From positions 7,430,470 to 7,494,469 of the forward strand of contig OZ316897.1 of the NCBI GenBank assembly GCA_973895155.1: 64,000 bases of DNA, written 5' to 3'. The notes under the pieces were generated by a model. The model was not told the DNA's origin and ran no database searches. It saw only the letters and a list, made by a program, of their open reading frames with translations. The position numbers were made by a program, and so were the translations under genes. Positions 6,141 to 62,537 of the stretch are shown in pieces. The stretch comes from Marsupella aquatica (Eukaryota > Plantae > Marchantiophyta). Within the stretch, counting starts at the first letter, position 1, and each line of letters begins with the position of its first letter.

Positions 6141-6484
6141 TGTTAGATATTGCTCTAGTCTTGTGACTCATGAGCTAACCACAGTTAGTCTAACTCGGGT
6201 TAAGACTTGCTAATGTTAGCGGTAGCGTTGTTGTGTATTAAGCCAAGGCTGATGCTAGACCCTGGGTGGAACTTAGGCTCATTGTTACAGAGCTAGTTGA
6301 GAGATAGGAAGAGCTTGTGCTATGGATGCTTGGTATGGCCTGTCGGCCTAGAGTGCAGTAAAGCTCTTGTGTGTTCTAGTGGACGTAACCTCATGTGGAG
6401 GTGAACCACGTATCACTCTGTGTTGACTCTTGTGCGTTGGATGGTTCATGGGCTAGCAGTTGCGAATGTCATCTATGTTTAACA
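6141..6484 (+). repeat. Copia 5' LTR (344 bp)
   Basis: TGTTAGATATTG...TTTAACA; aligns to 17345-17681 with about 25 substitutions and 2 indels (manual count). Confidence 0.96.
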
Positions 6485-6486
6485 AG

Positions 6487-6498
6487 TGGTATCAGAGC
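6487..6498 (+). other. Primer-binding site (initiator tRNA-Met)
   Basis: TGGTATCAGAGC, 2 nt after the 5' LTR. Confidence 0.95.
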
Positions 6499-7040
6499 GT
6501 GCCTGGGAGGTGATGAGGTTTTTTTTTTTCGTGACAGGTTTTTCTAGCGTTCATTGTCGATGGTACATTCAGAGTTTCATCGCATGAAACTCAAATATGT
6601 GTGGCTGTGCGGATAGGTTAGTGAGAGGGCTTTCTAACAGTGGTTAGAACTCACTGATCGGTATCCGTGGTGCGGAGGAATCAAAGTTTGCGTCGTTCAG
6701 GGTTTATTCGTGTTCGACGGGTTTTCGGGGGAGAGACCTGTGACGGGGTCCCCGTCACTCGAAATCACAAATAATGGGTTGCAGAGGGGTGTGCCTTGTT
6801 AATAGCCACTGTAAATAAGCCATTTTTAAATTTTTTTAGTTAATTCCGTCATTATAGGTTGATGATGCCCCGGGTGACTTTATATTCTTTCTCTCGTAAC
6901 AGTTCTAAGATTTGCAGTGACCTAAGCGGGCAAATATTTTGGGACCTTAAAAAGCGCTAGGCCCAACCCCATAGGACTTACCGTTTTGCTTGAGCTATCG
7001 TTGAGACCCCCTTGTAAAAAGAGGAATAAAAGGGAGCCTT

Positions 7041-7740
7041 GGGGGGGGAATTAAAATCCCCCGTTTGAGGGGCTGCCGCGAGTGGCAAGATTTGCCGGGG
7101 CGCTTAGGCAAGGAAGCAGCCGGGGCGCGAAGGATGGGCGCGGGGAGAAAATGGGAGCCTAAGGGGGGAATTTTAAACCCCCATAAGGATGTCGGGACGA
7201 GCTGCATAGGGCAGCCACAGGGCAAGCCGGTGAGGCTGCGCGCCCTGCATAGGGCCGCATGCAGGAGACGGTGAGTGAGGGGGAGATTTAAATTTCCCCG
7301 GCCATGGGGCGTGAGTGGGTGCTGCCGGGGTGAGCCGGGGCGCAGTGCTGCTCGGGCGAGTGCTGCTGGGGCGCGAGGTGGAGGCGCAAAGCAGGTGGAG
7401 GCGCAAAGCAGCCGGGGTCCAGAAGGAAGGCTGCCAGGGCAGGGACAACGCGCCCTGCATAGGGCTGCGTGTTGAGGATGGGGGGGCTTAAATCCCCCGG
7501 CCTTGGAGGATCCGGGTAAGAGGCCGCGCGTGCAGGTGCCGGCAGGTGGAGGGAGGCTTCGGGAGGCAGGTAGGAGGTAGTGGAAGGGGAAAATTAAGCC
7601 CCGACTTCTGGGAGGCAGGTAGGCGCGAGTAAAGGGGGGTAAATACTCCCTGATCCTCAGGCGAGTAGGACCAGACGGGGAAGGGGCAATATGAGGCACC
7701 TGGCACCCCGAATCACACATAAAAGGGGGCTTACGCCCTT
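7041..7740 (+). promoter_or_regulatory. G-rich GC island with repeated G-run/short core/C-run hairpins; candidate promoter of the nested ORF
   Basis: Hairpin motifs at about 7041, 7163, 7279, 7480, 7586, 7634 and 7725; TATA-like CATAAAAGGGGG near 7718; CT-rich leader then ATG at 8204. Confidence 0.45.
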
Positions 7741-8203
7741 AAGGAAACCACGCCTTTTTTTTCTTTCCCTTGAATTTTTTTTCGCTTCCCTTGAGATGTC
7801 AAAAGCTTCCCTCAAAACTACTTCCTTTGTAAAGTGCATCCTGGTTCTCCAATTTTCCCAGAGTTTTTTTTCTCCAGCTCTTTTCCTAGTTCTTTTCCCG
7901 GAGCCCGGCATTGAGTGGTGTTGGAGGATTGAATGCTTGCTTCAGAAACATTTGTGACGGCAGCATCGGGGTGCCTTGGTGATAGGGGTGGAGCCAATCG
8001 TGACATGGGAGCTGTTCGGGCTAGGGGAAACAAGGATTTGGGGGATAATTGTCGGATAATTGCCGTGTACGTGAGACTTTTTGCGACGGTTTTCTTGGGT
8101 GGTCTGGCTGTGGGCATTTGATCGTGTTACCGAGATTTTTCTTTGGGCCAGAGCGTGAATTGTGATACGAGTGAAGGAAGGAACTCGTGTGAGCCGAATG
8201 TGA

Positions 8204-10138
8204 ATGAGCTCGTCATTGGAAAGACCGAAGTTCAGTAGGGCCCGTATCCGTAGATACAAGGCCGCTTACCGGGACTACGTGGCGTCGCGGATTGTTGAAG
8301 AGAGGGAAGAAAGACATACAGCCATGAGTACCGGACCAGACCCCCGTGATGCATCCGTTGAGAGGAGGGTTTCCCGAAGAGTCTACCCCCGGACTTCTGC
8401 CAAGATGATGGAGGAATGCAAAGAAATTTTTCAGGCCACGGGTCTCACCAATTTCATGCGGGTAGAGATCAGGATTCCCCAAGGTAGGACTTGGAACTTG
8501 GAGGCATGATTAGAGTTCCGTACGGAGGGGATATACTTTCATTGCACACAAAAATTGATTCCCAATACGGAGCTGGCCAAGCTATTGTTCCTGGACAACC
8601 AAGATTTCACTTTTCAGCCAACGGAGCCATCGGGGATACTTACGTTGGAACAGCTGGCTGGAGTTGTGAGAGATCCCACCTCCGTGACCAACATTCCCCT
8701 TTCATCATTCAAGGAACCAGCTTTCAAGGGGTTGGTGGCCAAGATACACCAATGGGTGCTTGGCCGAGGGCAATCTGGAATGGTGAGTGGAGATCAATTG
8801 GCTATTGCCAATGACATCAAAGCTCACCCAAGTCACACTTACGGATGGTAGTACTTTGGGCTGAAGAAAACGTTGGCCATGGATCCTAAAAGTGTGAAGT
8901 CCGGAGGAAGCGTGCATTTGATGGTGTTATTCCTCTTGGCCAGGTCAGAGGGGCTCCTCCCCTCTCCGGAGACTGAAGAAGCGGTGCCACCCTTCACCAC
9001 GGAAATACGGAGTATTGCAACTACCATCTTGGGTAGTCTCGCGAAGGAATCACCGTCTGAACCAACAGCCAAAATCACTACCAAAGAGGACCCGGATGAA
9101 GATAGCACGATGGAGTGGATGGACTCGCTTGTGGGGAATCCGGAGGAGCCCCTTGATTACGATGTGCTCAAGGTATATTTGGCTGAATTACGTGATTTCC
9201 GCAAGGGGGTGCATGAGGGACTGAAGTTGTGCCAAACCTCGAGAGAGGCCCTCAACCAAGCCAACGCCAGGATGGAAACCTTGCAGACAAGCAGCCAGGC
9301 CTTGAAGGAAGTAATAAAGGCTAAGGAGGTGATAATCCAGGAGCAAGGTAAACAACTTACGGAGGCACAGGTTCAGATTTCTCAGTTACACAGAGCCTTG
9401 TCTACCAAGGCTAAGGAAGCATTAGAGGTGGGGGCTTTGAGGGAAGAATTGGCCAAGCTCAAGCAGAGCACCGGTGAGGTGGAGAGACTGAAGCGACAAG
9501 TTGTGGAGTTACGGGGTCAGGTTGGGCTCCTTGAGACCAGGGCCAAGAGAAACGACATGTTGAGGTTGGGGAAGAGGAAAAGCCCATCCTCACCTAGCCC
9601 TACTCTTCCCCCTGACTTGGTCTCTAAGGCTATAGAGATGGTGGTAACAGAGGTGACTCAGAAATACGGGCCCATGTTGGATTCAGCAAGGAAAAATAAG
9701 GAGAAGTGTAAGATATTGGAGAAGAAGTTACGGGAGTCCCGTAAATCATTACGGGAAACCCAAGGGAGTCACGGGGCCACCGTGTCTCTGTCATTACTAA
9801 CGGAAGTCTCACCTAGTCAGGGGATAGCGGGAATGTCGGATATGCCACCCAGGACCGCAAACCCAGGAACCCCTTTGGCTACCGGTCAGGTCTTACCCTT
9901 GGAATTGCGAGGAGGGGAGGAAGCCGCTCTATGGAAGGACACGATCAGCCAGGGCTATGTGAGGGCCTGGCAGGCTTTAGCGGCCTTGAGGAGACGGGGG
10001 ACCTCTGGCCAAACCCCGGGAAGGACTCCCCCGGTACGAAGGATTGGGGTTGTTACACCCACATCATTGGGAGGCACTGGTAGTGAGGATTCTAGGGGGT
10101 GGAGTCCCGGTTCCGTGAGTGAGTCAGGAGAAGACTAG
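8204..10138 (+). pseudogene. Retrotransposon accessory protein (~644 codons, coiled-coil), interrupted by two in-frame stops
   Basis: ORFs 8204-8509, 8555-8851 and 8873-10138 share one frame (offsets 351 and 669), separated only by TGA 8507-8509 and TAG 8849-8851. Long heptad-like E/K/Q/L segment at ~9170-9560; basic LGKRKS motif. Confidence 0.75.
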
Positions 10139-12661
10139 TGAGGCATACGGACGTTGGTTGTATGGATTTTGAATTATGCAACACCTTGGATGAGGGTAAT
10201 CACGGGTTTATTGGAAGGAGCTCGAGGAGCTGATTCCGGCAAGGTGTGGTACGCCCAGAACGGAGCCAGGATGAGGAAGATAGGGCTCCGCGAAGTTGGT
10301 CGGTACGGGATACTGAAATGACCATAATTGGGTCGTCCAGAGTCCGTTTGCGGAGCCGTTTACGGATTCGTGATCAGGAGGAGCAGAGCTATCCAGGGCT
10401 CTCCTCAGGGGAGTAGTTGGACATATTTGAGGTTTCGACCATGAGTGACCCCCTCACTTCCCCGAGACTACGGATGATTACGGTTGGTACCGGCGAAGGC
10501 ACCGTTGGTACCATAGTGGGCTAGGGGTTTTCATGGTGTGTGTGCCGCATGCTTTAGGTTAGTTTATCTCTTAGATGTTTTTTGGCGGCGCCGCTAGGGT
10601 TGTCGCCGTTGTTGCCATTCTGTGAGGGGTGCTTTGGTGTTTTTTTCAGTATTTAGGGGGAAGGCCCGTAGTGAGAAGGGGGGAACTCAGTCTAGTGTTG
10701 GTGTGAGGGAAGTTAGCTCATAGCCAGAAGGGAAATTAGAGCCAGAGTAGTGAGGTAGAGGTGTAGCACTTGCCCCAGTGAGGCAGGAGTTGGGCAGATG
10801 GCAGGAGGCCGGGTTGTCCTTGCAATGTGTTACCACTTTTTGCCAAAAGATATGGATTTGGTTTGATTCCTCAAGTTTTGGTGTGGCGTTATCTTTTCCG
10901 GCTCACGATTGTGTTCTTTCCCAAGAAGTGTCTAAGGAATACTTGCACGGATTGGTTGACCATGTGAGTAGGGGGGGTGGTGACAACACTCCACCAGCAA
11001 CCAGTAGGAGTGTGTGTGTGTGTGGCGTAGTCCATGGGACTAGATCAAAAGCAGCGGGACTAGTCGGTAGACTTGATCAAAAACTACATTTCCGGGAGTG
11101 GAAATAAACATACTCATCCTACATGCAATAGAATCCTAATAGCGTCCCTCCACGTTCCCGTCACACGATAACAAACAATTTTAGTAGGAGTAAATACGTA
11201 TTTTTTGTGTAAATTGTTTGTTAAGCAGGTGACAAGACCAGAGATCATTTTTTCAACGGTGTGAGCTGTGCGGTGCGGGAGGTGTCGCATGTTGTACTCA
11301 AGTTGAAGGTTGAAGCGAGTTGGTCATTTCGGTAGTTGGATTGTTGTCGAGTTGTTACCGAGTGTGATGTGACGAGTGAAGGAGGCGTTAAGGTTTTTTC
11401 ACAAGCTATGGAGCTTGTTCCCATCTGAACCGGGTTTCTCTTTGTGACGTTCGACTCGGTGGAAGAAACGCGAAGTGCTACGGCTCAACGGATTGATCGC
11501 GGCGAGGCGGTCATTTTGAGCCCGGGTTTGGCACTTGACGCGGAGTGAAGGCAACGCGGTGGAAGTTTTTTCTCTGCTGGAGCTGCAGACTGTGCCGGTG
11601 CAATTCGACAACATTACCCGTCGGCCGCGTTCACTTTCCTCGCTTAAAACAACAGCTTATTAAGTGAGTTTTTCATTCTTGTTTTTCTGGGGGAGTTTTT
11701 TGGTTTTATAGGGGGTTTGTAACCCCTTGTGTGTGTACATACACACAACCCCCGGCCCCGTGTACTTGAGTTACCCCCCCCGCACTCCCGTTCTTGTAGG
11801 CGCTGCGGCGCCTCATGCAGTGCCGGCTGGCGCTATAAGCGCAACCAAGGCTGTCCCTCTTGCCCTCGCCCTTCGCGCGCCCTTTGCCCTTTGTGCGCTT
11901 GCTCCTCCCTCCCTCTGGCTCCTTTAACGTGACCCCGTGGCCACGTTACGCCCACGACCCCACGCATGCCCTGCCACCCCGGTTCAGTCCCACTTGCACA
12001 CGGCAGCCCGCAGGCCGCCTGCCTCGCCCTCCACGCCAAGTTTACTCCCCGGCCCGAGCCCGCGCCTGTACCAGGCAGCATACGGCCGCCTGTACCCTGG
12101 CCTTCAGGGATACACTTCTACCCCATACAAGGTGTATTTGTTATTTGGGGGGCGTTTGGACCCCCTTTAAGGCCTTTTTTTGTCTCTTTTTCTTCTCATT
12201 GGTTCTCCTTATGTGCCGGGATCTATCGCCCTCCGTTTTAATTGCTCTGACAGAGGGAACGGCCCCCTATAAGACCTGTCAAACTATGCAGGAATATTCC
12301 CAAAAAACAGAGAGCTATTTTTTGGCCGTCTGACAAAGATTCCGTCCGCCAAATGGTAACTTTTTTGGTTCTTTTTGGGCAAGATCGTAACCACTGGAGT
12401 TAGCAACGTGGCGCACCGATCACATTGCAATTCCAACGACGGGTTGTACTTGGTATTTTGGTTATTCCCTGAGGTGGTCAAAATGGGGGAGTTTCCCAAG
12501 GTTTTACCCACCCCGACCAAAATTTGAATAACTTTTCAGTCAAATTTCAATTTTTATTTTGGCTTTCAGTATTGGACTCCTAGCTTGGTGGGCTACGTAC
12601 ACGGTGGTGTTGAGTTTTATGAGAAGTTTCAAAAAAAGACATTTTTTCGTGATTTTCTCAT

Positions 12662-15600
12662 ATGAGTGACTCGAAGAATACTAGAAGAATTGGCTTCGGT
12701 AGAGCTTCAGGATGGCGACGGTCAGACAAAGAGTCTAAGGAGGAGCTGCTACCGTTTGAGGAGGAACAAGTTTCACCGGTACGATCACCGGTGCGACGTT
12801 CAGTGGAGGAAGCTGTTCTACCACCAGAGCTGTCGGTAGTGGGGAAGAAGAGGGAAATGGCTAGATTTGAAGGAGTGAAGTTTGAGGTGGAGAAGTACGA
12901 TGGTCGTACTGATTACTTGCTCTGTGAGAAGCAAGTGAAGGGTGTTCTACGGGCCATGGGCTTAGCTCATCTGCTTTCTTCCAAGAGCAGTATGATGGAG
13001 AGGAGGAGCTTTTTGTGAAGCAATGGAAATAGGAGATAAGTAATCTCATCAGTTATCAGTCACTTTCATCAGTGTACCTGATATCAGCTGCCACCTCATC
13101 GCAGAGAGGCCACCAAGTTGCGATGCGAAAAAGAAAAAAAATGAAGAAAAAAAATCATTGAATTTTTCTTCAAAATTTGAAGGAAAACTAATTTTTTTCA
13201 AATTTTTTTTCGCCATGAGGCGTCCGTACCGTACGGACACCTATCTCGGCGAGCCCAGCCGAGATGGGAAAAAAACCCTGGAAATAGGAGCAGTGATTGC
13301 TGTCAATGCAATGATTATGCGGATTGTGCGTCACTGTTCAAGGCTCTAAGAGAGAAGTACTACTGGGAAGATGTGTCAGACCGGCTGTACAAGAAGTCTC
13401 TCTTGATGAGCCTCAGGCTCAAGGAAGGGAGCAAACTGTAGGATCACCATGAGTTTGACAGTCTAGCGGTGGATCTGTCAAACCTAGGTAAGGGAGTTGA
13501 AGATGAGGATAAGGCCTTGCTTCTGCTAAGCTCCTTACCGCCATCTTATCAGGGCTTGAAACAGGTGCTCTTGTACAAAGATCTGAAGTCCATTTTGTAT
13601 AATGAGGTGGTGAGCTCTTTACTGTCTAATGATGCTCAAAAGAAGCTGGGTCAATCACAGACAGCATCTTCTTCTGGCACTGCGCTGAACGTGAACCGTG
13701 GAAGACCAGTGTAGCGCACAAATGGGCAAAACAAGTTTAGATCTACATCACGGGGGAGATCTAAATCCAAAGGGAAATTGCAAGAGAAGAAGCCTCTTGC
13801 ATGTTGGAGATGTGGCAAGCTTGGCCACATGAAAAGGGATTGTCGAGTAAAGGACCCTACTGCATCAGCTAATGCGGCATCGAGCGCATCTGAGGTAGAT
13901 TTACTCGATGATGATGACATATTGTGATGCCAAGGTTATGCTCTCAACGTAGTGTCATATCCTGGTAGTGATGACTGGATTCTAGATAGTGCATGTACTT
14001 TTCACATTTGCTCTAGGAGAGATTTTTTCAGTTCTTACACGGTTTCCAACGGGTCAATGTTGATGGGAAATGGAATCCCATGTCAAGTAGTTGGACTTGG
14101 ATCTGTTAGATTTTAGATGTTTGATGGTGCAGTAAGAACGTTGAGGACTGTGAGACATATTCCCAACATGATGAAAAATCTCATTTCACTTGGAGTTTTA
14201 GAAGCAAATGGCCATCAATGGAGTTCTGCTAATGGTGTCCTTCAGGTTTCAACTGGTACTAAAATTGTATTGAAAGAAAAGAGATATAATAATCTATACG
14301 TTTTGGAGGGCAGTGTAGTCTGTGATGAAGCCAATGTAACTTTATCTCATGAGGAGATGGCCCGGCTGTGGCACTTCCGTTTGGGCCACATGAGTGAAAA
14401 AGGTTTGGCTATTCTTCAGAAAAAAGGATTACTTTCTAATTTGCAATCTTGTAAGCTGGAATTCTATGAGCATTGTGTGCTTGGGAAGCAGCATAGGAAA
14501 CCCTTCGAAGTTGGAACTCACACCAGCAAAGAGGTACTTGAGTATGTACATAGTGATGTGTGGGGTCCAGCCCCTACTCCCTCACATTCTGGATGGTTAT
14601 ACTATGTCACGTTCATAGACGATTACTCAAGGTATGTGTGGATATACTTTCTACACAATAAGTCTGATGTTTTTGCCACTTTTAAGGAGTGGAAAGCCCA
14701 AGTTGAGAATCAGACTGGTAATAAGGTGAGATATCTTCGATCGGATAATGGCAGTGAATACAGTTCTGGGGAATTTGGAACGTATTGTAAGGAGCGAGTG
14801 ATTACCCGCCATCTCATAACAAGTTATACTCCTCAACAGAATGGTGTTTCTGAGAGACTCAACCGAACACTATTGGACCGCTCGAGAAGTATGTTGAGTC
14901 AATCATGCTTACCATATGAGTTTTGGGCTGAAACTGTTAACACTGCAGCTTATTTGGTAAATTTTTCTCCATCCAGTTCTATTGGATTTTAGACGCCATT
15001 TGAAATGAGGTACGGGCGTCCAGCAGATTACTCACATCTGAGGATTTTTGGATGTGATGCTTATGTGATGCTTACACCTTCCGAGCTTCGATCCAAGCTG
15101 GAGTCCAAGTCGAAGGAATGCATTTCCTTGGCTATCAAAAAGGTGTGAAGGGTTATAGGTTATGGGATCCAGTAACCTATAAACTAATTGTCAGTAGAGA
15201 TGTGTCCTTTAATGAATCCAGATCATCAAAGGAGGGGGAGAGTTCTGAGGACTCCCATACTGACAAGGGGAATCTCCCATCCCAGACTAGGTTGAGAGGG
15301 AGATTAGTCATGATGTTGTTCATGACAGGAGAGATGGAGAAGCTCCGGGCTTGGAGCTGGTTCCTATGATGGAACAAGAGGAGCAGTTTGTTGTTGGGGT
15401 ACCTCAAATTCAACCAGCAGCAAAAGCAGATTAGCCTGAGTCATCTACTAGAAGAACTTACAGTCATTCTACTAGAGCTCCTACCAGGTATGGTCAATGG
15501 GCAGACTCATCTAAGCTAGATGATATTGACATTGCACCTGATGATGATGATATGACTTTGATCTTGGAAGAAGGAGAGCCTTCTTCGTATAGTGAGGCTT

Positions 15601-17145
15601 GTGCTTCTGAGCAAAAGCATGAGTGGAATGCAGCAATGCAGAGGGAGTTACAATTTTTGAGTAACAATAAGACATGGGAGCTGGTGGAGCTTCCAAGAGG
15701 TCAGCAAGTGGTGGACAGCAAGTGGATTTACAAGTTGAAGGACAGTCCTTCAGAGGGTGGAGATAAGATCTACAAGGCAAGGCTTGTTACCAAGGGATTC
15801 ACTCACGAGAAAGGAGTGAATTACAATGAGGTCTTTTCACCGGTGGCTAAGTATTCCACAATTCGGATCTTGTGTCAGCTTGTTGTGTTTTTTGATCTGG
15901 TGATAGATCAGATGGATGTTGTTACTGCTTTTCTCTATGGCAACTTGGAAGAGATGATCTTCATGAGATAGCCAGTAGGCTTTATGAAGAAGGGCCAAGA
16001 GAACTTAGTTTGCAGATTGCTGAAGTTCTTGTATGGATTGAAGCAATCTCCCAGACAGTGGAACAAGCGGTTTGATGATTTCATGTTTGCTCAAGGTTTT
16101 ATAAGGATGGTGTATGATCCTTGTGTGTATATGAAATCAGTCAAGAATGATGTATTGGTTTCATCATTTTGGTTATCTATGTGGATGACATGCTGATTGT
16201 GGCTAAAGATCAATCTGAGGTTGAAAAACTCAAGGCAAAATTGAGTTTTGAATTTAGGATGAAAGATCTTGGTAAGGCCAAGAGGATCTTAGGGATGGAG
16301 ATTTTTACGAACTTTGATACTGGACAGTTGTGCTTGAGTCAAGGCCAGTATGCGAGGAACGTACTTGCATGATTCAACATGGAAAACTGTAAGCCAGTGA
16401 GTATTCCTTTAGCTTCACATTTCAAGTTATCATCGGCTTTCTCTCCTACGGATGCTATGGAGAAGGTCTGATGGCTAAGATTCCTTATAAGCAAGAAGTA
16501 GGCAATCTGATGTATTTGATGACTTGTACTAGGCCTGACTTGGCCCTAGCGATGGGCAAGGTTAGCAGATTCATGTCAAATCCAGGGAAGGTACATTGGA
16601 AAGCTGTGAAATGGATTCTCAGGTATCTGAAGGGTACACAGGACTATGGATTACTATTTGATGCCAAATCAGATAGAACATTAGTTGGCTATGTAGATTC
16701 TGACTATGGAGGCTGTCTGGATACAAGGAGGTCTACAACTAGGTTTGTATTTACTCTTGGAGGAGGATGTATCAGTTGGAAATCTACCTTGCAGAAGTGT
16801 ATATCTCAGTCTACTACAAAAGTAGAGTATGTTGTAGCAGTAGAAGCAGCAAAGGAAGAAATTTGGTTGGACAAGTTGATCGCGAAGATGGGTTTAGAGG
16901 ATGGCAAAATGTCTCTAAACTGTGATAGCCAGAGTGCTCTTCATTTGGATGCTAACCAGGTGATGGATAGCAGGGTGAAGCACATTAATATCAGGTCCCA
17001 TTTTATCAGGCAAGCAGTGTCTGATAAAACTTTTGAGCTAGTCAAGATTGATGGAAAGCTCAATCCTGCTGATTCCTTTACCAGAGTGATTCCTTTGGAG
17101 AGTTTCTCAAGACACCGTGCTACTTTGCAGGTTTTGCAGTTGTAA
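12662..17145 (+). pseudogene. Copia gag-pol polyprotein, disrupted by stops, frameshifts and an insertion
   Basis: Gag KFEVEKYDG and EDEDKALLLLSSLP; zinc knuckle CWRCGKLGHMKRDC (~13802); protease WILDSAC (~13976); LWHFRLGHMSE; integrase VHSDVWGP, LRSDNG, PQQNGVSER; RT YKARLV, QMDVVTAFL, LYGLKQSPR, YVDDM; RNase H GYVDSD, NPADSFT. Confidence 0.95.
13036..13290. mobile_element. 255-bp insertion in copia gag, flanked by 12-bp direct repeats, with a hAT-like right end
   Basis: TGGAAATAGGAG at 13024-13035 and 13279-13290. The insert is A/T-run rich, has palindromes GTCCGTAC-C-GTACGGAC and ATCTCGGC...GCCGAGAT, and ends AAAAAACCCTG. Gag-like coding resumes downstream. Confidence 0.7.
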
Positions 17146-17333
17146 TGCAAGTAAAGTTATTTAGCAATGTGTGATTATTTGTGTATGGATTACTCATTCC
17201 AGTTTGGCTACGACTTAGTTCTAGTTAACCCTTGTGGTTTTTAGGGGGAGACATGTTTAGGTGATTGTCTAGAACTTCTCACTGAGGATTCCATATGGTA
17301 GCATTCATTAGTCCAGTCCCCAAGACAAGAGTC

Positions 17334-17342
17334 AAAGGGGAG
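17334..17342 (+). other. Polypurine tract
   Basis: AAAGGGGAG, 2 nt before the 3' LTR. Confidence 0.85.
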
Positions 17343-17344
17343 TT

Positions 17345-17681
17345 TGTTAGATATTGCTCTAGTCTTGTGACTCATGAGCTAACCACAGTTAGTCTAACTC
17401 GAGTTAGGACTTAGCTAATGTTAGCAGTAGTGCTCTTGTGTATTAAGCCAAGGCTGATGCCAGACCCTGGGTGGAACTTAGGCTCATTGTTACGGAGCTA
17501 GTTGAGAAATAGGGAGAGCTTGTGTTGTGGATGCTTGGTATGGCCTAGAGTGCAGTAAAGCTCTTGTGTGTTCCCGTGGACATAGCCTCATGTGGACGTG
17601 AACCACGTATCTCTCTATGTCGACTCTTGTGCGTTGGACGGTTCATGGGCTTGCAGTTGCGAATGTCGTCTATGCTCAACA
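17345..17681 (+). repeat. Copia 3' LTR (337 bp)
   Basis: TGTTAGATATTG...CTCAACA, followed by TSD GGTTG. Confidence 0.96.
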
Positions 17682-20262: not shown

Positions 20263-21756
20263 GGAAAATTTACTAATTACACAAAAAAGGTGGCAAGTTA
20301 GTAATTTGGCAAAAAAAGGTGGCAATGTAGACATTCTCAAATTTTGTACATTTCATATAAATTCTTAGAACTATTAAACCTATCCTTATACTGCAGTCTA
20401 CTTTCGTGAGTCTTTGGTGCAACTTTGAACCAAAACTTTCAAAAAACTTCTTATTGTGCACTAGCCTTAAACGCATGATGCCTTTGCATATGAGTTTGAA
20501 CCTTTGACCAAGTCTACACCATGTATGGTAACCATGTAATCAACGTTAGAAGACACTTGTCCAAATGCTGTGCACAGCATTTCAAGTTCTAGAATCTTTT
20601 TCCTCCTCCCCGCCATTGAGAATAATTTCATGAGTTTGGCAATCAAGAGATGAGGGAGCACAATGCACACCTCTGTTCTTGAATTCACTTATGGCTTGCG
20701 ATGGCAGTGAATTTGTGAATGAAAGATGTGGAGACTTGGACATTGGGATAGAAATCAGATCAGGAATGAAAGGGAAGGGAATTGAAGGCGATGTCGGAAT
20801 ATAGTTATCTTATTTATTTATGAGAACTCCAGGCCAGAAGAAGTTTGTCTTTTGGATTTTGGTTCTCTCTTTGTATGAAGCTGTGGCTTGGTCAATCCAT
20901 AACAGTAGAGGGAACCCCACAGTGGAAGCAGATCTGCATCTCTCAGACGGGAGCTTCCACCGTGCGGCAGTGCCCAGTGTGACATCAACAGGAATCTACC
21001 GGGCCTTAGAGTTGCGAGATGGAGGCAAGGATTACATGGGCAAGAGGGTTACGAAAGCTGTGAGTGAGCAACATCCAGACCATCATCAAGCCTGCTCTCA
21101 TCGGTAAGGACCCGACTGAACAGACCGCTATCGCAATCTCATGGTCCATCAGCTGGATGGCACTCAGAATGAGTGGGGCTGGTGCAAGCAAAAGCTCGGA
21201 GCCAATGCCATCCTTGTTGTGTCCCTGGCTGTTGCTCAAGCTGGACATGATTTCGTCTTAGTTTCAAGTCTATGTCTCGATAGAGACGACTGCTATGCCT
21301 GCCAAACAGAAGGAAATAAAAGGAAAGCACTTCAAACCTGATCGATGTGACTCCGTCGCTGAAGAGAAGAGCATGGGACGCAAAGAACCAGCAAAGAACA
21401 AACGAGCAGGGGAATGAGCAAAGAATTATCAGGCAGGGGCACGAGAGACCTATGCATCACTATTAATACTGGTTAGTTAATCCAGGTCGCAATTTTGAAA
21501 ACATTCAAAACTTTGAAAGTATCCGTTTCGGTCCCGGGAAACTTTCGCACAATTTTGGTGCAGCTTTGATGAATCAAAAAACTTCAGAAGTCAATATTTT
21601 TTTCCCATGCGTCGTTGGAGCTCTAAGTTGCATGGATCATCCCTAATTAGAGGAGTTTACGGATAGGTTTATTACAAGTGAATTTGTTCCAGGTCAGTAA
21701 CGGGGTTCTGGCCATAACATGCCACCGTCAAATCTGTGAATAGTTTGTTTTTCTGG
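20263..21756. mobile_element. Possible old Mutator-like (Pack-MULE-type) element enclosing the enolase fragment
   Basis: Left end GGAAAATTTACTAATTACAC is MULE-TIR-like. Patchy collinear inverted matches on the right: AAACCTATCC ~20376 vs GGATAGGTTT 21661; TGCAACTT vs AAGTTGCA; GGTGGCA vs TGCCACC. No TSD identified. Confidence 0.3.
20877..21245 (+). pseudogene. ENO: Cytosolic enolase N-terminal fragment (~120 codons), intronless, with two frameshifts
   Basis: [70 protein letters not shown] (includes the plant EWGWC insert), spread over three frames. Confidence 0.93.
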
Positions 21757-23668: not shown

Positions 23669-24628
23669 TCAAGATATGCGGTGCCCAAGGTATACTACTG
23701 ATCTGACAACAAATTCACACTTCTTGGGGTGTATATTTAGGTTCACCTTCTTAAGCCTCATGAATAGCTCCTCAAGGTCAAGTAGATGCTGGTCAAATCC
23801 TTTGCTGTGGACCAACACATCATCAATGTAGCATTTGAGAAACTCAGCACCCTGAAGAACCCGATCCATGACTCTTTGAAAGAATATGGGTGCATTCTTC
23901 AAGCCAAATGGCATCACCAACCACTCCCATAGTTGGTTACTACCATGGAAAACTGTTTTCTTGCGGTCCTTTGCAAGCAGCAAAATCTGGTTAAAGCCTT
24001 GCCTTAGATCCACAAGAGTGAAGATGTCTGAGTCTCCAATGCTGTCACATAGCTCATCTGGCCGTGGCATGGGGTACCTGTCCTGGGGTGTGACCAGGTT
24101 CAGTGGCCTGTAGTCCCCACACATGCGCTTTTTTGTCCACAATCCACTGGAATCCTTCTTTGCTGGCATCACTGTAGCTGCTGCAAAATCTGATGTAGAT
24201 GGCTGAATAAGACCAGTTTCATATAACTCTTGGCACCTCTCATCCACCAGCTGCCACTCATGCTTACTCAAACGATGTCTCCGCCTGAAGATAGGTGTTT
24301 CATCAGCCAACTCAATGGAGAACTGCATGGTCTTGCACTTACCCAAGTCCTTCATAGAGAAAACAAACACGTTCTCATGCTTGAGGAGCAAATTCAGCAG
24401 CTGGTCCTTCTGTCTTTTACTCAGGTGGTTGCCCATGATGAATGTGTAGTTGGCAACACTAGGAATAGGACCTGATGTACTCGTGCTTGAAGAGCCAGAA
24501 GTGCCAACCTCTCCACTGTCCAAGCTGCTAGCATGCTGTTGATAAGGTGATGAGGCCTCTCCAAGGCCTGTTGTATTTGTTGCTTTGGTCTGATCCACAC
24601 CATGAAACTCAGAAATAATATAAGCCAC
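23669..24628 (-). mobile_element. Ty3/gypsy-type reverse transcriptase fragment, truncated after RT
   Basis: RMCGDYRPLN, DRYPMP, DLRQGFNQI, VMPFGLKNAP..FQRVM, YIDDV, KKCEF, YLGHRI; no RNase H, integrase or LTR recognised. Confidence 0.93.
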
Positions 24629-27452
24629 ATTACGAGGGACCTCCTTATACAGAGGTTTACACCTCCACTACGTACATACCACCTCAATTGCTTTTTCTTG
24701 GCACTCGTGAATGTGATTGAACTTTTTCTATGCATGTTAGTTGCTAGCAGCTTGCACATATGCATTGCCGGTGACTTGTATGTTTTTGATACACTATGGT
24801 TACGATACTATATGTCACGACAAGGGTCTGTAACATGCATTTTGGTTGATGACTTGGATTTATAGAGACAGTTTTAATCTTGGCTCCATGTTACAAGCAT
24901 TCTGGGATCCCATGATGCAAGCAACACCTTTCACCCCCTAGGATCCCAAGGTGGATGTGTTGCACTATGTTGGAATGAGCCCAATAAAGTTACTTTTTGG
25001 TTGTTGAGGAGGCTTGCCAGCTGGTCTTATGTGTTCCTTTGGCAAGAGCTGGTCTGCCTAAATTCTTATAAAATGGCTTGTGGGTTTAAAACAAATATAG
25101 AGAAGCACAAGTGAGAAGTCAATGGTTTTGGTGGAAAATTTAAGCTCTCATAGACCATTATGGTTGACAAAATATTTGGATGGACTGGTGCTACTCGGAT
25201 GGAATGTATGCTCCAAAACAATTTTGTTATTCAGATAACACCATTCTTTTGCATATATGTTCACTTTTTGGAGCATCAAAACATGTCTGGTCTGTCAAAG
25301 TTTTGAGTCAAACACTCTGGCCCCATCAGAGCATCAAGTTTGTTTAGATGGAGGTGTTTGGTCTATCTGAGTTCTGAGATCAAACATTGTGTGGGTGATT
25401 TTTGAAGGCCTAAATCTTACCTGACAATTGCTCTAGCAAACAATACGTACACAGGGAAAACAAATAAATTCTCTTGAGTTTAACAAATTATTTGCTACAT
25501 CGGTTCTCCTTACATCTAATGAAATCGAGAGGCTCACAGGCATGCATCAGAAATTGTACTACAAAACCCCTTCCCAAGCACAGGGAGAAGTCTCCACTCA
25601 GACTCCTTTCCCAATATGAGAAAAACAACATGGCTGCTCCCCAAGGACGGTTCTGGGAAAGTCAGGTCCTCCCTCCTTTCGTACTCTGTAGCGAAGTGTA
25701 CGGTAGCTTACCGATGGTCGTTCTCTAATATACGCACGATTCTGCTTTATGTCCTGAGCTCGCCTCACACAACAGCTCCTGTAGCTCTCATCTCTCATCT
25801 CTCATCTCTCGACCCAGACCAAGTGGCGTCGTAAGTTAGTAGTAGCTCAAGTAGCTCACCACTGCACTCCTTCGTCCCTCCATGGCCGGTGGGTTGAACT
25901 ATTGGGAATGGCCGTGAGGAAAGAGTAAGTCAAACTGGGGAGACGTGCGTCAACCGAAGCACACTCTGAACACTAAAAACAAAACAAACGGCACACACCG
26001 CTCCGGATCAGAAGGAAGGCCAGCTAGGCTGGGTTGAACAGGAACAGTCATCATCCATCGAGCGAGCGAGCGAGAGACACTTTACTGTAAAGAGTACCAG
26101 AGTGGAGGTGACAGAAAAAGGTGGCTGGATGAGACTGTAGCTGCCTCAACTGCAGCAGCAGGAAAAAAGGCTCCTTGACTGCTAGAGACAGCCATGCGGT
26201 GGAATATCATTTATGCCTTTCACGGAGCTCACCCTGGGTTGTTTCGTTGCATCTCCCTCTCCTCCCCTCCCCTAACCTCCCCTCCCCTCAGTTTTCTCAA
26301 TCCTTCGTTATTTTCCTTCTCGTGCCTTAGGGAGTCCGAGGACAGCGACGGGACACAGGTCGGGGTTGGAAGTTGGGGAGATCGATACGACAGTGGGAGC
26401 GTTCACGGGGTACGAAGGCATTGAGCCATCGGGGCAGTTCGTGAGATGCGGTTATACTCGTGGATTTTAGGTTTGTACTTGTATCACATCTTTCCTTTCT
26501 CCTATTCTTTGATGTGTACATGCGGTCTTTCGGTAGGGTGGGTGGTTCACGCTGGGGAGAGTTGATCTCTTGGGTTGATCATAGATTATTTTGGTGTCCA
26601 TTCGAGTACATTGGCGTATGGGCTGTTGTTCTAGCGGGCAGCCCTCCTGGGTATACGATTGATTTGGCACTCCGTTCTTGCGCGTTGGATGTGACGCTTT
26701 GGCGCCGCAGAGTCTGGTAATAGAGTTCGTTAATTGCGGTTGTTGGGAGATCTGATGTTTTCGCATGGGCATCTGCTGCTTGAAAACCTTCTTTTCTGTG
26801 GGGTCGAGTTGGGTTCCGCGTGCCGGTTGATACAGTCAGTTGTGGCAGCAACCTTTTCCACATCTGTCATGTAGACTGGTCCCTCTCCCGCTCTGGCCAT
26901 GGGATCAACTATATTCGCGGGTTGTAAATTTTCTGTGATTGCCAAGTTTCTATTGTGTAGAACTCCTTCTACCCTTCGATCCAAGCTGTGAGGTGACCCA
27001 AAGGTAGTAGCGTTATCTGTCTGGTAGTATCGCTCTGTGTTCATTGTAAGCTGGTTGGAGAGGTTTGCCGACGAGGTGAAGCTGGGTTGTGTTTGAGCTT
27101 TAACTACTGTTTTTGCAACTGCATCTCTTGATCTAAATCCTCATGGCATGCCTCTCTAGGACGTTCTCTGTCCACCCATCTGATATAGTCAATTCCAGGA
27201 TGAATAGTACTGGGCCCTGGATCGTATTTGTTGCTGTAATTGTGCGTCGGAGCTGGGCTGTCTGCATAGCTTTACACAGTGTCTTAGGACCGGATATCAT
27301 ACCCAAGTTGTCCTAAGTCTTGCCGCCTTGAGCCGAGCCCTTTTGTTGATTGCAACGGTGCTGGTCTGGCTAACCCTTTCCTGTTCCCACTGCAGGTCCT
27401 CTCTTGTAGACCTGACGAGTCGCGCTGTAGGTTGGTCGGGATATACACTATC

Positions 27453-29681
27453 ATGGAAGCCATACCGTCCACCGCAGCGAACGGAGCGAAACGGTGGTTA
27501 TCTGAACTGGTAGGTTTGACCTCTTTGTGCCAATCTAACATGTGATGCGTTTATACGGGGCAGAAGAAGTCTCAGGTTGTTTTGACTTGGTACTTGCAGG
27601 GACTTGAGGAGCCGTCCCTGGTGAAGCATTTGGACAGTCTGTTTCTGCCCCCGCAACAGCAGGTCTTTGCTGCAGCGAAAGGATATCAATATCACAACAA
27701 CTTCGATCTACGAGAGTCGCAGAACGTCAGGCAGCAGTACCACAACAGCTTCACCAGCTCAGCTCCCAATACAACGATTGTACACAACGCTCACAATGGA
27801 TACAATCAATCATGGGAGGCCCTCCTCAACTGCGAGCGTCCGGCAAAGATGATGAAATCCGGCACATGGGACGTGGGGTCAGTTCAACATGACCGTCAGC
27901 CATTGCTTCCGTCAATATTTCCCGCCAAGATGGAAATGGAGGCTCATCAGCCACACAACATAGCACAGCAGCGCATGACACAGTTCACCACACCGCAACA
28001 GCTGAATTGCCACAATTTAGAGGGGTTTGTGGCATCCCTTCCCAAACTATTGGATGACACTTATGACAGTGTGGCACCCAGGACTCCATCTGGAGAGTTC
28101 GGCATTTGCTCTTCCATTCAAGGACAAGATAGCAGCAACAACGAAGTGCACTCAGTGGATATGAGTGCAGCCTGCGCCCGCGACAGTTCCCTCTCGCCCA
28201 GCGATTCTTACGGAGGCAAAAGGAAACCGGATTGCTTTCCCCCGGTAGAGATGAGAGTGCAAAGAGCAATTCCTCCGATGACCATGTGTAGGGCCCCTTC
28301 TCCTCCAACCAAGACATCAGGGCACACTCAGGATCATATTATGGCTGAGCGTAAGCGTCGTGAGAAGCTGAGCCAACGCTTCATTGCCCTGTCGGCTATC
28401 GTTCCCGGCTTGAAGAAGGTACGCCCCCGGGTTCAGGGATTGTTATAGCAGGGTTTTGAAGACTCGACATAATTGTCGTTGTCTGCCCAATTTGGTGAAT
28501 GATGGTCGAGTCGATGATCTGGTTTTTTTCTCTGGACCACAGTTTGAGATCACTAGGTTGCGCTCCCTGTGCGCATTGATTCTATCAAAATATGCGCGCA
28601 GCAGTCCATCAAGAGTTGGGTCAACGCATGAGTCTTTACGTGTGTTATATACGCGTAGCTTGCGTAGGTTACGGAGCTCAGAACTGCCGAGTAATTGACG
28701 ATGACGTGGACCCTAGTTTTGTCACTCTTTTTTCTGCAGATTAACCATCTGAAAGTGTGCTCTCCTATTGACGAGTATGCGATGAAAAAACTACTGTGCT
28801 TGCTCAGTCTCGAAACAGACGGGTCGTTAAGTTTGAGTGTTTGTCCTTTTGGTGTAGATGGATAAGGCATCCGTGCTGGGCGATGCGATCAAGTACGTCA
28901 AGTCTCTTCAAGAAAAAATTAAGAACTTGGAGGAGAATTGCACCAAGAAGAACGTGCGGACGATCGCTATCGTTAAGAAGGAGAAAAATACGAGGGGTTT
29001 GAGTGATGATTTACAGCATGTAGCGGAGGATGACAACACGAATGCGCCGGAAATTGAGGCCCGCATGGTCGACAAGAACGTCCTAGTTAAGATGCACTGC
29101 GAGAGAAAGAAGGGCATAGTGGTGAAGTCCTTGGCTGAGTTGGAGAAATTGCACTTGACGGTGGTGAACGCCTACGTGTTGTCTTTCACAGCAACATCTT
29201 TCGACCTTACAGTCACGTGCCAAGTTAGTATGCTTGGACTCTACCCTTTTCAAAGCCCCCTGAACTTTCAGTTACTATCGTTCTCTCTTTGACTGAACTT
29301 CACAATTGACATCCTTAAGGTAGTGGCTCGCGTGGTATCGTAGGCTTGTCTGATTAGTCGGTCTGGTCTTACTTCTTGGTGCTATTGTTTTGCGCGACTG
29401 AGGGTCGTGGGTCCCTGACTCATAGCTACATGATACCCGTTTTTTTCGTCTCAGAGGTGCGTCGCAATTTCCTGTTTGCTTCCTGCCGGAAAGCACATTT
29501 GGAGTCCCTGTTGACTATCAATATGTTTTATGACCTCGGTTTTCTTGTGGTAGTCGTCCCACACTAGTCGGAATCTAATTGCTGGAGGATCTCGTTGGCA
29601 TGGCAGGTTGAAGAGGGTCACGACGTGAATGTCGATGACGTTGTGGCTGCTCTACAAGCCTTTTTCAAGTCCCTAAACTGA
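27453..29681 (+). CDS. bHLH transcription factor, subfamily IVa (bHLH18/25/NAI1-like) with ACT-like C-terminus, ~438 aa; exons 27453-27509, 27600-28418, 28858-29223, 29607-29681
   Basis: N-terminal WLSEL|GLEEP motif; QDHIMAERKRREKLSQRFIALSAIVPGLKK|MDKASVLGDAIKYVKSLQEK; PEIEAR..DKNVLVKMHCE...LHLTVVN; all three introns GT-AG, phase 0; ends VEEGHDVNVDDVVAALQAFFKSLN*. Confidence 0.93.
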
Positions 29682-60866: not shown

Positions 60867-62537
60867 ATGGATTACACCAATCTTCAGCGATTTGGTCTCG
60901 ATGACTCTCTCACGGACGAGAGAAATTTCTTCAACTCAACTTCTGCCCATGTGTTTCCGTACTCGGCTTTCATTTCTCCGTTTCCACTTATCTCGTTGTC
61001 CGCCCCTGACCCAGCTCTACTGCAGACAAATGAACATGCGTGGTTGAAAGGAGTGAAGATTCCACCGGCTGACAATATTGGTGTTGATACTAGTGGACAG
61101 TTGCCTCACCAGTGTCCCAATATTGTCATGCAAAACAGTCAGTTCAATCTTCCTGCGGACATGATGACGGCAGCGTTCTCCAGCAGCTCTTTCGAGTTTG
61201 GTGGCGATGTTGCTCCTCATGCCCAATGGAGGCAGATGTGCTCTCTCTCTTCTGAAGATTACCTAAATGATGCCATGCCTCAGCTCATTTCGGACTCCGT
61301 GGTCCAGCGGCCCTGTCTTTACACGTCGTCCAGCGACTGCCCGCATGAAGCAGATTCATCCGGCAGTTCCGAGAGAGGCAGGCCGTCATCGGACCGGTCG
61401 TGTTTGGTTGGGTCCCCGTCCGACGAAATGAACTGTAGCTGGCGAATTTCGGACGTGCTACAAGGAAATTTAGGTGTTTCTACGGCTGGATTCCCGCTTG
61501 ACGTGCTTATCAACGACTCGTCTTCCGTCGCAGCCCATCTAGATACTCTTGATTCAAGTCGACATACTTTGAGTTCCCTTGTAAGCATGCCAGGGCCCGC
61601 TCGCGATTGTATGTCATTGGGGCCAGTTTCTTGGATGCCGCCTTGCACGATGGAATCGGGCGATAGTTCAATACTCACAGGTTTTCTCAACCAGGATATT
61701 CCCAACGTGGATCTGTTCGGCGCTTCTACGAGTACTCACAGGAATGGCGCACTGCCTTACAAGCGGCAGAGAGCTTCGTACACGTTAGAAAATAGCTCCG
61801 CGATACATTTGATCAAGCCAGTAATTCCTTCGCTCTCTAGGAGCACTTCGACCAAAAGCTCGGGGTCTGACTATCCAATGACCTCGTCGAATATCACCAA
61901 CGCATTGTACAAAGACTTTCATGGCTCCAGGAGGCAGGTAGTGACCTTGCCTAAGCCAACCGCGTTCGAAGCTGTAGGAGAATCGGCGGCGAAGAGAGAT
62001 CAGCTCGATAATGATCTAAAGTCTCTCCGGAAACAGAACGCGACTTCTATTGAACCTCAAAGTGTGGCAGCAAGACACAGGAGGAGGAAGATAAGTGAGC
62101 GTGTCAGGGTTTTAGAGAAGCTAATCCCTGGCGGGAACAAGATGGATACAGCTTCAATGTTAGACGAGTCTATCGAGTACGTTAAGTTTCTTCAGCTGCA
62201 AGTGAAGCTTCTTGAAATGTTGGGCGACATGTCATATGGAAGTTCTGTAACGTCAACCCCGACGTCAACTCCCTCACTTTCCAATGAAAACATCGGACGC
62301 GGAAAGGATGGACTTCACACGCTGAGGACAAGTAGTTTTGGGTCTCAGGTATCACAGAGTTGCAAGACAATGCAGCTAGTGAGGCCAGCTGCGAGTCCTT
62401 TGATTATATCGGAGATCCTCCAGCAGCAGCTGTTCAAGCAGAAATTGTGCTTGGGGTCTCTTGGCCAGTGCCCTCCGACTGCTCGATCTCGACATCCGGG
62501 ATCTACGCGGGGACCTACGTTTGATCGGGTTCATTGA
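60867..62537 (+). CDS. BNB: Intronless bHLH transcription factor, subfamily VIIIa (BONOBO-like), 556 aa
   Basis: [56 protein letters not shown] is a subfamily VIII bHLH. RRKISE, KLIPGG and FLQ.QV, plus C-terminal [12 protein letters not shown], favour VIIIa over VIIIb (HEC/IND). First ATG at 60867. Confidence 0.85.

Follow-up and report, generated by a model that had tools for sequence, protein, structure and literature searches.

Already known among retroelements are extra open reading frames (ORFs) located within the internal part of retrotransposons from plants, a protein ORF in the U3 portion of the long terminal repeat (LTR) of mouse mammary tumour virus (MMTV), and 5S-derived sequence in the LTRs of the Cassandra elements. 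As far as the accessible text of the sources goes, the plant extra ORFs, which include Grande gene23, the RIRE2 frame, Retand TRP28, the Ogre PMD gene, Athila ORF-1 and the SIRE env-like frame, are family-wide, have no assigned function and often encode coiled-coil (SMC-like) proteins (PMC7264820, PMC11963269, PMC6317226), and gene23 is described as nuclear and as possessing its own promoter (PMC7264820). Here, we describe a 64,000-nucleotide stretch of the liverwort Marsupella aquatica (contig OZ316897.1, positions 7,430,470 to 7,494,469), hereafter the window, in which a decayed Ty1/copia element has received a 4,496-bp insertion that holds a 644-codon gene. With a probability of roughly 0.6, this insertion is a solo LTR whose U3 contains the gene as an accessory gene with its own promoter.

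The insertion shares with the plant elements an extra gene that is family-wide and has coiled-coil stretches, but whereas their ORFs are placed in the internal region by the sections of those papers available, this one lies between TG...CA ends without an LTR pair. The MMTV sag/naf frame is likewise a protein ORF within U3 with its own U3 promoter, according to the portion of PMC9412291 consulted; MMTV is, however, a vertebrate retrovirus, no sequence link to the insertion was found or is claimed, and the U3 location proposed here is itself deduced. Cassandra terminal-repeat retrotransposons in miniature (TRIMs) likewise have gene-derived sequence in plant LTRs, yet theirs is a 5S rRNA-derived promoter in short LTRs and not a protein gene (10.1101/2023.07.14.548913, in its available text), and the insertion has no Rfam match. 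In the Podospora crapaud elements, the 3' half of the LTR is conserved, U3 is subfamily-specific and solo copies far exceed full ones, a pattern repeated in the conserved 3' part and variable putative U3 of the insertion; the crapaud LTRs, by contrast, measure 339-443 bp, and the accessible part of that report mentions no ORF in them (PMC10787394). Since non-chromovirus LTRs reach about 5 kb, with target-site duplications (TSDs) of 4-5 bp (PMC6317226, in the text available), the 4.5-kb size fits an LTR.

The literature searched, the supplements on extra ORFs of PMC6317226 and most subscription papers aside, yielded no case of a protein ORF contained in a plant LTR. If the LTR does carry the gene, a whole protein gene occupies a part of the element that ordinarily serves control alone, and such genes would go unseen wherever annotation pipelines take LTRs to be non-coding. 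Furthermore, solo-LTR formation is regarded as a host route for removing retrotransposon genes; if the LTR holds a complete gene, expressible copies would persist. The protein family is unnamed, and the retrotransposons of this plant lineage are little studied; the available text of one source only lists gypsy lineages for a liverwort (PMC12885004).

That the insertion is real, of the integrase type and flanked by a true 5-bp TSD is supported by both the window and the contigs of four public runs (X1-X4), which come from two studies, contain 41-49% of the window's sampled words and may include the source sample. A reading made from the sequence only had described the AGACC duplication, the TGTGAC...GTGACA ends and the length, all confirmed here, and had considered whether copia copies lacking the insertion rejoin at AGACC. 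Such empty sites, which in the run contigs belong to other members of the host copia family, occur in all four runs (3, 2, 4 and 3 contigs): position 6733 is joined to 11235, 4,501 bases are omitted and five letters fit either side. Because contigs of every run rejoin the empty site at one AGACC, the duplication is not a chance repeat, and the integrase-type insertion that had been proposed stands.

The right end is also found exactly in other copies. Matching stops at 11234-11235 in 16 of the 32 pieces listed (of 499), and loose ends at 11234 were seen in 8 and a further 4 contigs of X1, 9 of X3 and 3 of X4, with none listed there for X2. Beyond 11234 the flanks agree at 0.51-0.66, which fits mostly unrelated sequence, and three contigs continue for 1.0-5.8 kb into unlike single-copy DNA. 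The suggestion that the ends are kept among copies thus held for the right end, with different flanks in X1, X3 and X4. Some contigs depart from the element at 11220 or 11206, 14 or 28 bases short of its end, into other DNA; 673 letters past 11220 are present in X1 and X4, and these may be truncated copies or a variant end.

As the sequence-only reading had stated, the insertion has neither a terminal LTR pair nor gag or pol. Self-BLAST returned no terminal direct repeat, a scan of all six frames at E<=0.05 found no Pfam family, and the window's own copia integrase, reverse-transcriptase and RNase H proteins and gypsy reverse-transcriptase protein gave no tblastn match to the insertion better than E 0.78. 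The left 360 bp and the right 630 bp align with a score of 29, against a shuffled 95th percentile of 28, owing to one 24-bp likeness. No convincing internal primer-binding site (PBS) was recognised in the insertion, and queries by protein and by end motif found no locus of it in the JGI metagenomes or IMG/VR. The two LTRs around a non-coding interior that define TRIMs and large retrotransposon derivatives are not present in it. Long terminal inverted repeats and a DDE transposase are features of TIR DNA transposons, such as the Ginger-like elements, and the insertion has neither.

These absences bear on how the gene came to lie between the ends. Had an ordinary element undergone a single deletion and retained an internal gene, the LTR start or end would persist as a direct repeat, and none was found; an internal gene therefore needs two deletions. 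Because the TSD at both ends and the lack of an internal repeat force this second deletion, a solo LTR is the simpler reading. It would be what remained once the end-repeats of a retrotransposon had recombined with each other; the element was probably of the Ty3/gypsy type, an assignment that goes by LTR size only. Under this scheme, U3 would extend on the plus strand from 6739 to about 10650 and comprise the GC-rich array of motifs, the TATA-like box and the gene together with a 3' leader, and the conserved last 600 bp would supply a start site belonging to the element itself, the poly(A) signal and a short U5. Every round of reverse transcription would place such a gene in both LTRs, and the gene would persist when a solo LTR forms, in a manner comparable to MMTV sag.

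The composition of the insertion is consistent with this arrangement. GC skew is positive in all six of its segments, matching the sense strand of the copia element, and AATAAA sits about 130 bp from its right end. The GC-rich block contains six palindromic motifs of the G4+...C3+ type against a shuffled mean of 1.8, with 3 of 1000 shuffles reaching six, both the motif and the stretch having been picked after they were seen. The tract that resembles a polypurine tract (PPT) near the right end is one of five sites in the window fitting a loose pattern, and the sole one with a run of seven G.

Within the insertion, parts differ widely in abundance, a disproportion that escaped the first reading: the gene appears to be much rarer than the ends. 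Measured in X1 against a single contig, depth is about 220 at 6916 and about 290 at 11204, but 1-4 within the GC-rich block, and its median over the ORF is 13. In all four runs it drops sharply near 7010 and climbs near 10640. Summed contig depth is not copy number, and only its order is used here: the ends are common, the gene is rarer and the GC-rich block evolves fastest. An apparent step near 10981 was discarded, as summed depth varies about sevenfold within 85 bp. The gene may be restricted to a minority subfamily; we propose that at least one subfamily has it and that the commoner relatives have a middle that is more diverged or absent.

The gene itself had been taken for one long open frame encoding a protein of about 644 residues. 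This requires correction, as in-frame stops occur at codons 102 and 216 and the longest open piece is 428 residues (8852-10138); with two stops, this copy cannot encode the whole protein. Nonetheless, two stops are far below chance (the other five frames have 19-33, and P is about 1e-11 from base composition), and the frame is therefore a real coding frame. The second stop is private to this copy, or nearly so: all aligned depth in X1, X2 and X4, and 95% in X3, carries another base at this codon. The first stop lies outside the 40 rows listed (of 669) in that base comparison; a related protein (P0002), which starts at the same methionine and has 44% identity over 178 residues, reads through its position. 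Two further relatives (P0003 and P0004) show about 50% identity over 60 residues.

Selection on the frame is also suggested by the placement of gaps in diverged contigs, which occur in one of seven pieces within the ORF and in 13 of 17 outside it (Fisher p=0.009). These 24 pieces were taken from the 32 listed by dropping two in the host copia element, two without differences and four duplicates, and as the listed pieces are a selection of the longest, the p value is indicative. Among the 15 joints listed (of 90) are two deletion variants of the ORF, at 8208-8606 (net 390 bases) and 8321-8478 (156 bases), each in three of the four runs; both are in frame, for which the chance expectation is 1 in 9, and this suggests shortened subfamilies. 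Taken as a whole, the gene is multi-copy, conserved and nearly gap-free, and is broken in this copy. No RNA data set was among the public runs listed for the window's words, which speaks neither for nor against expression. The position of the gene, with those of the other features, is given in Table 1; the possible second, shorter frame downstream of it has no Pfam match.

Table 1. Features of the insertion and of the element that received it, with positions counted in the window.
Feature	Position	Strand	Basis
Host Ty1/copia element; leader contains the insertion	6141..17681	+	LTR pair, TSD GGTTG, tRNA-Met PBS, integrase and reverse-transcriptase remains
Left TSD, AGACC	6734..6738	.	Sequence; empty-site joint sharing 5 letters, four of four runs
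Whole insertion, TG...CA, 4,496 bp; likely solo LTR, probable orientation	6739..11234	+	Ends, empty sites, shared right end, GC skew, AATAAA
Left terminal block, common to a far more abundant related family; opens with a 20-bp hairpin (6739-6759)	6739..7010	+	Palindrome; contigs at 6794-6991 and 6801-7011
GC-rich (64%), fast-evolving block; palindromic G4+...C3+ motifs arrayed at intervals of about 50-200 bp; likely serves the gene as promoter/enhancer	7021..7750	+	
TATA-like CATAAAA, then a tract rich in pyrimidines; the gene's predicted core promoter with its 5' leader	7718..7900	+	Motif scan
Accessory gene, 644 codons, broken by 2 stops; helical domain at the N terminus that fits no known family, then a long coiled coil at about residues 325-525 and a tail of low complexity	8204..10138	+	
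Possible second frame, short (about 120 codons) and decayed, with 2 stops inside it; uncertain	10162..10524	+	Two gap-free diverged contigs here
Right terminal block, common to many copies; likely core promoter, R and U5; AATAAA at 11103-11108	10640..11234	+	Depth step in four of four runs; other copies end at exactly this point
Purine tract resembling a PPT (A + G7), then TG at 10981; may be left over from where an older and shorter LTR began	10970..10987	+	
Right TSD, AGACC	11235..11239	.	Sequence; empty-site joints

The encoded protein has few detectable relatives. For the full frame, no homologue was found among 7,988 candidates scored, while a 113-residue piece matched two homologues among 1.84 billion representatives, and a profile built from these recovered the same two among 2,680 candidates. 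The homologues are unnamed Logan proteins, from contigs that are all shorter than 1.4 kb. No named family was found in Pfam, among solved sequences or among named clusters; the Pfam matches obtained were rejected as coiled-coil noise, and PF10536 (PMD), PF04195 (Transposase_28) and PF03078 (Athila ORF-1) gave no match at E<=10. The N-terminal domain may bear a remote likeness to the PMD/Transposase_32-type domains of accessory ORFs, an impression that Pfam does not support. Also rejected were designed SAKe proteins among the PDB sequence matches, where no stretch passed; ESM Atlas recognition 1510, whose unnamed clusters at 0.96 were a lead only; and zf-BED at 0.86 or less, likewise a lead only (ESM Atlas, with P0002). 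A transmembrane or env-like protein was ruled out by a best 19-residue hydropathy of 1.25.

AlphaFold is confident for the coiled coil alone, a long helical region spanning about residues 334-523. Modelled as two copies, residues 315-535 form an in-register dimer with a score of 0.44, the best of three controls scoring 0.01; the runs share at least 46% of contacts, with a predicted local distance difference test score (pLDDT) of at least 63. In a microbial calibration, 21 of 30 known pairs attain the mark applied to this score, as do 0 of 23 single chains; for eukaryotes the figures are 17 of 29 and 0 of 30, respectively. The middle of the protein is thus predicted to be a dimeric coiled coil.

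Several observations weigh against a solo LTR that carries an accessory gene. In the window and the public-run contigs, no full-length element, paired LTRs, gag-pol, PBS junction or PPT junction was seen. Past 11234, neither a PBS of the TGG type nor a PPT complement appeared in the 23 of 53 loose-end rows listed, although a match of only some 30 bases appears too short for a contig to be aligned (the shortest listed match is 39), and a shared PBS junction could escape view. At most about three of the 8 or 9 contigs have one downstream sequence in common, and complementarity of this sequence to the element, as self-priming would entail, is at chance level (32 matches against 32.65 expected). 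An exact end in other copies is established for the right side only, no loose end at 6739 being among the 24 listed. The stretch 7320-7335 has no second copy of 85% likeness among the aligned contigs, leaving multi-copy continuity across the GC-rich block unsupported, and the ends exceed the gene by about 10-20 to 1, a pattern also typical of non-autonomous DNA transposons. With regard to the protein and its putative role, no family was recognised, and the N-terminal domain has no confident fold (pLDDT 37.6); comparison of that domain model with BFVD gave nothing at E<=0.001 and is uninformative. Moreover, coiled coils may pass the dimer test through likeness to solved coiled coils.

The abundance of the ends relative to the middle is what would be expected if the insertion were a whole non-autonomous unit and not an LTR, namely a cassette with short TG...CA ends, moved in trans by an integrase or a DDE transposase, with many shorter end-only derivatives. 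The listed loose ends, in showing neither PBS nor PPT past the right end, and a 9-bp complement of the 5' end at 11157-11165 point in the same direction. Yet the terminal inverted match comprises just 5 of 6 bases, Pfam recognises a transposase in none of the six frames, the poly(A) signal and the sense-strand skew suit an LTR, and the PBS junction could simply be invisible for the alignment reason given above. Moreover, no class of DNA transposon in plants is known to us that combines ends of this kind with a TSD of 5 bp, which counts further against such a cassette; overall, it is an unlikely explanation.

Somewhat harder still to sustain is an origin by deletion or recombination from an ordinary element whose LTRs were shorter. 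A 5' LTR stub would then precede an accessory gene of the 3' internal region, after which would come a PPT and, from 10981 onward, a 3' LTR of 254 bp. The PPT-like tract followed by TG at 10970-10982 would be its right-hand junction, internal accessory ORFs with their own promoter are common in the available text of PMC7264820, and the single-copy continuity over 7320-7335 is in keeping with it. However, the left end is unlike the sequence from 10981 onward or any of the right 630 bp, so that two deletions are required. Furthermore, none of the 24 rows listed (of 1,846) contains a loose end starting at 10981, and multi-copy contigs span this position (10903-11041 in X2, 10739-11024 in X4). An LTR of only about 850 bp (6739-7010 and 10640-11234), with the gene block as a separate mobile element nested inside, would account for the fall and rise of depth near 7010 and 10640 in all four runs, but is improbable, as none of the 15 joints listed (of 90) skips the approximately 3.6 kb, deep contigs past 6991 and 7011 run into 141 and 201 unlike letters and not into 10640, and the borders have no clean TSD or terminal inverted repeat, only G-run matches of 7-8 bp.

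If the insertion is indeed a solo LTR with a gene in U3, a function may tentatively be imagined for the protein: as a coiled-coil dimer, it might act within the nucleus on the array of palindromic motifs that the family itself carries, and sustain transcription against host silencing. This proposal draws on analogy with Grande gene23, with VANC, with the coiled-coil oligomers of VANC and Athila, and with PMD proteins. In the accessible text of the respective sources, the VANDAL anti-silencing protein VANC is an accessory protein that acts on motifs repeated throughout non-coding DNA of its transposon (PMC5735166), VANC and an Athila domain are modelled as coiled-coil oligomers (PMC13547354), and PMD proteins bind promoter motifs (10.1101/2024.09.27.615353). 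VANC, however, belongs to DNA transposons, and the parallel is one of analogy that implies no homology. A broader scenario, which we regard as rather doubtful, is that, in a lineage of liverwort retrotransposons, an entire accessory gene came to lie, together with its own promoter, in the U3 of a 4.5-kb LTR, possibly through an upstream shift of plus-strand priming that left the old PPT at 10970 as a relic. Solo LTRs would then stay protein-coding units, able to supply an anti-silencing or trans-activating protein after the loss of gag-pol.

The host copia element is decayed, its LTRs differing at 25 of 336 aligned positions, and the insertion lies in its leader, about 250 bp downstream of the 5' LTR. 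Just right of the insertion site (6730-6740 / 11236-11251), 10-15 bases of the leader are highly variable among the empty-site contigs, and many of the joints run from 6738 to 11248-11251 with differing letters between; the target is a hypervariable spot of the copia leader. Further along the leader, 11702-12276 is a GC-rich block with a 14-bp inverted repeat at its borders and a GC skew opposite to its surroundings. It has G-run...C-run motifs of the same kind as the GC-rich block of the insertion, and is possibly a second nested element.

The window is nuclear DNA of a land plant, and one of its bHLH genes points to a leafy liverwort as the most likely host. Elsewhere in the window, a Ty3/gypsy reverse-transcriptase remnant (PF00078) lies at 23669-24667 on the minus strand, with no connection to the insertion found, and a decayed, intronless fragment at about 20910-21240 on the plus strand, recognised by eye, is presumably enolase-like. 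On the minus strand at 675-2441 is an SMAX1/SMXL-like first exon (PF23569, Clp_N) whose N-terminal sequence is unusual. Two bHLH genes are present on the plus strand, at 27546-28448 and 60867-62537, the latter being a single-exon gene whose closest matches are a protein of Calypogeia fissa, at 71% identity, and MpBHLH20 of Marchantia, at 37%.

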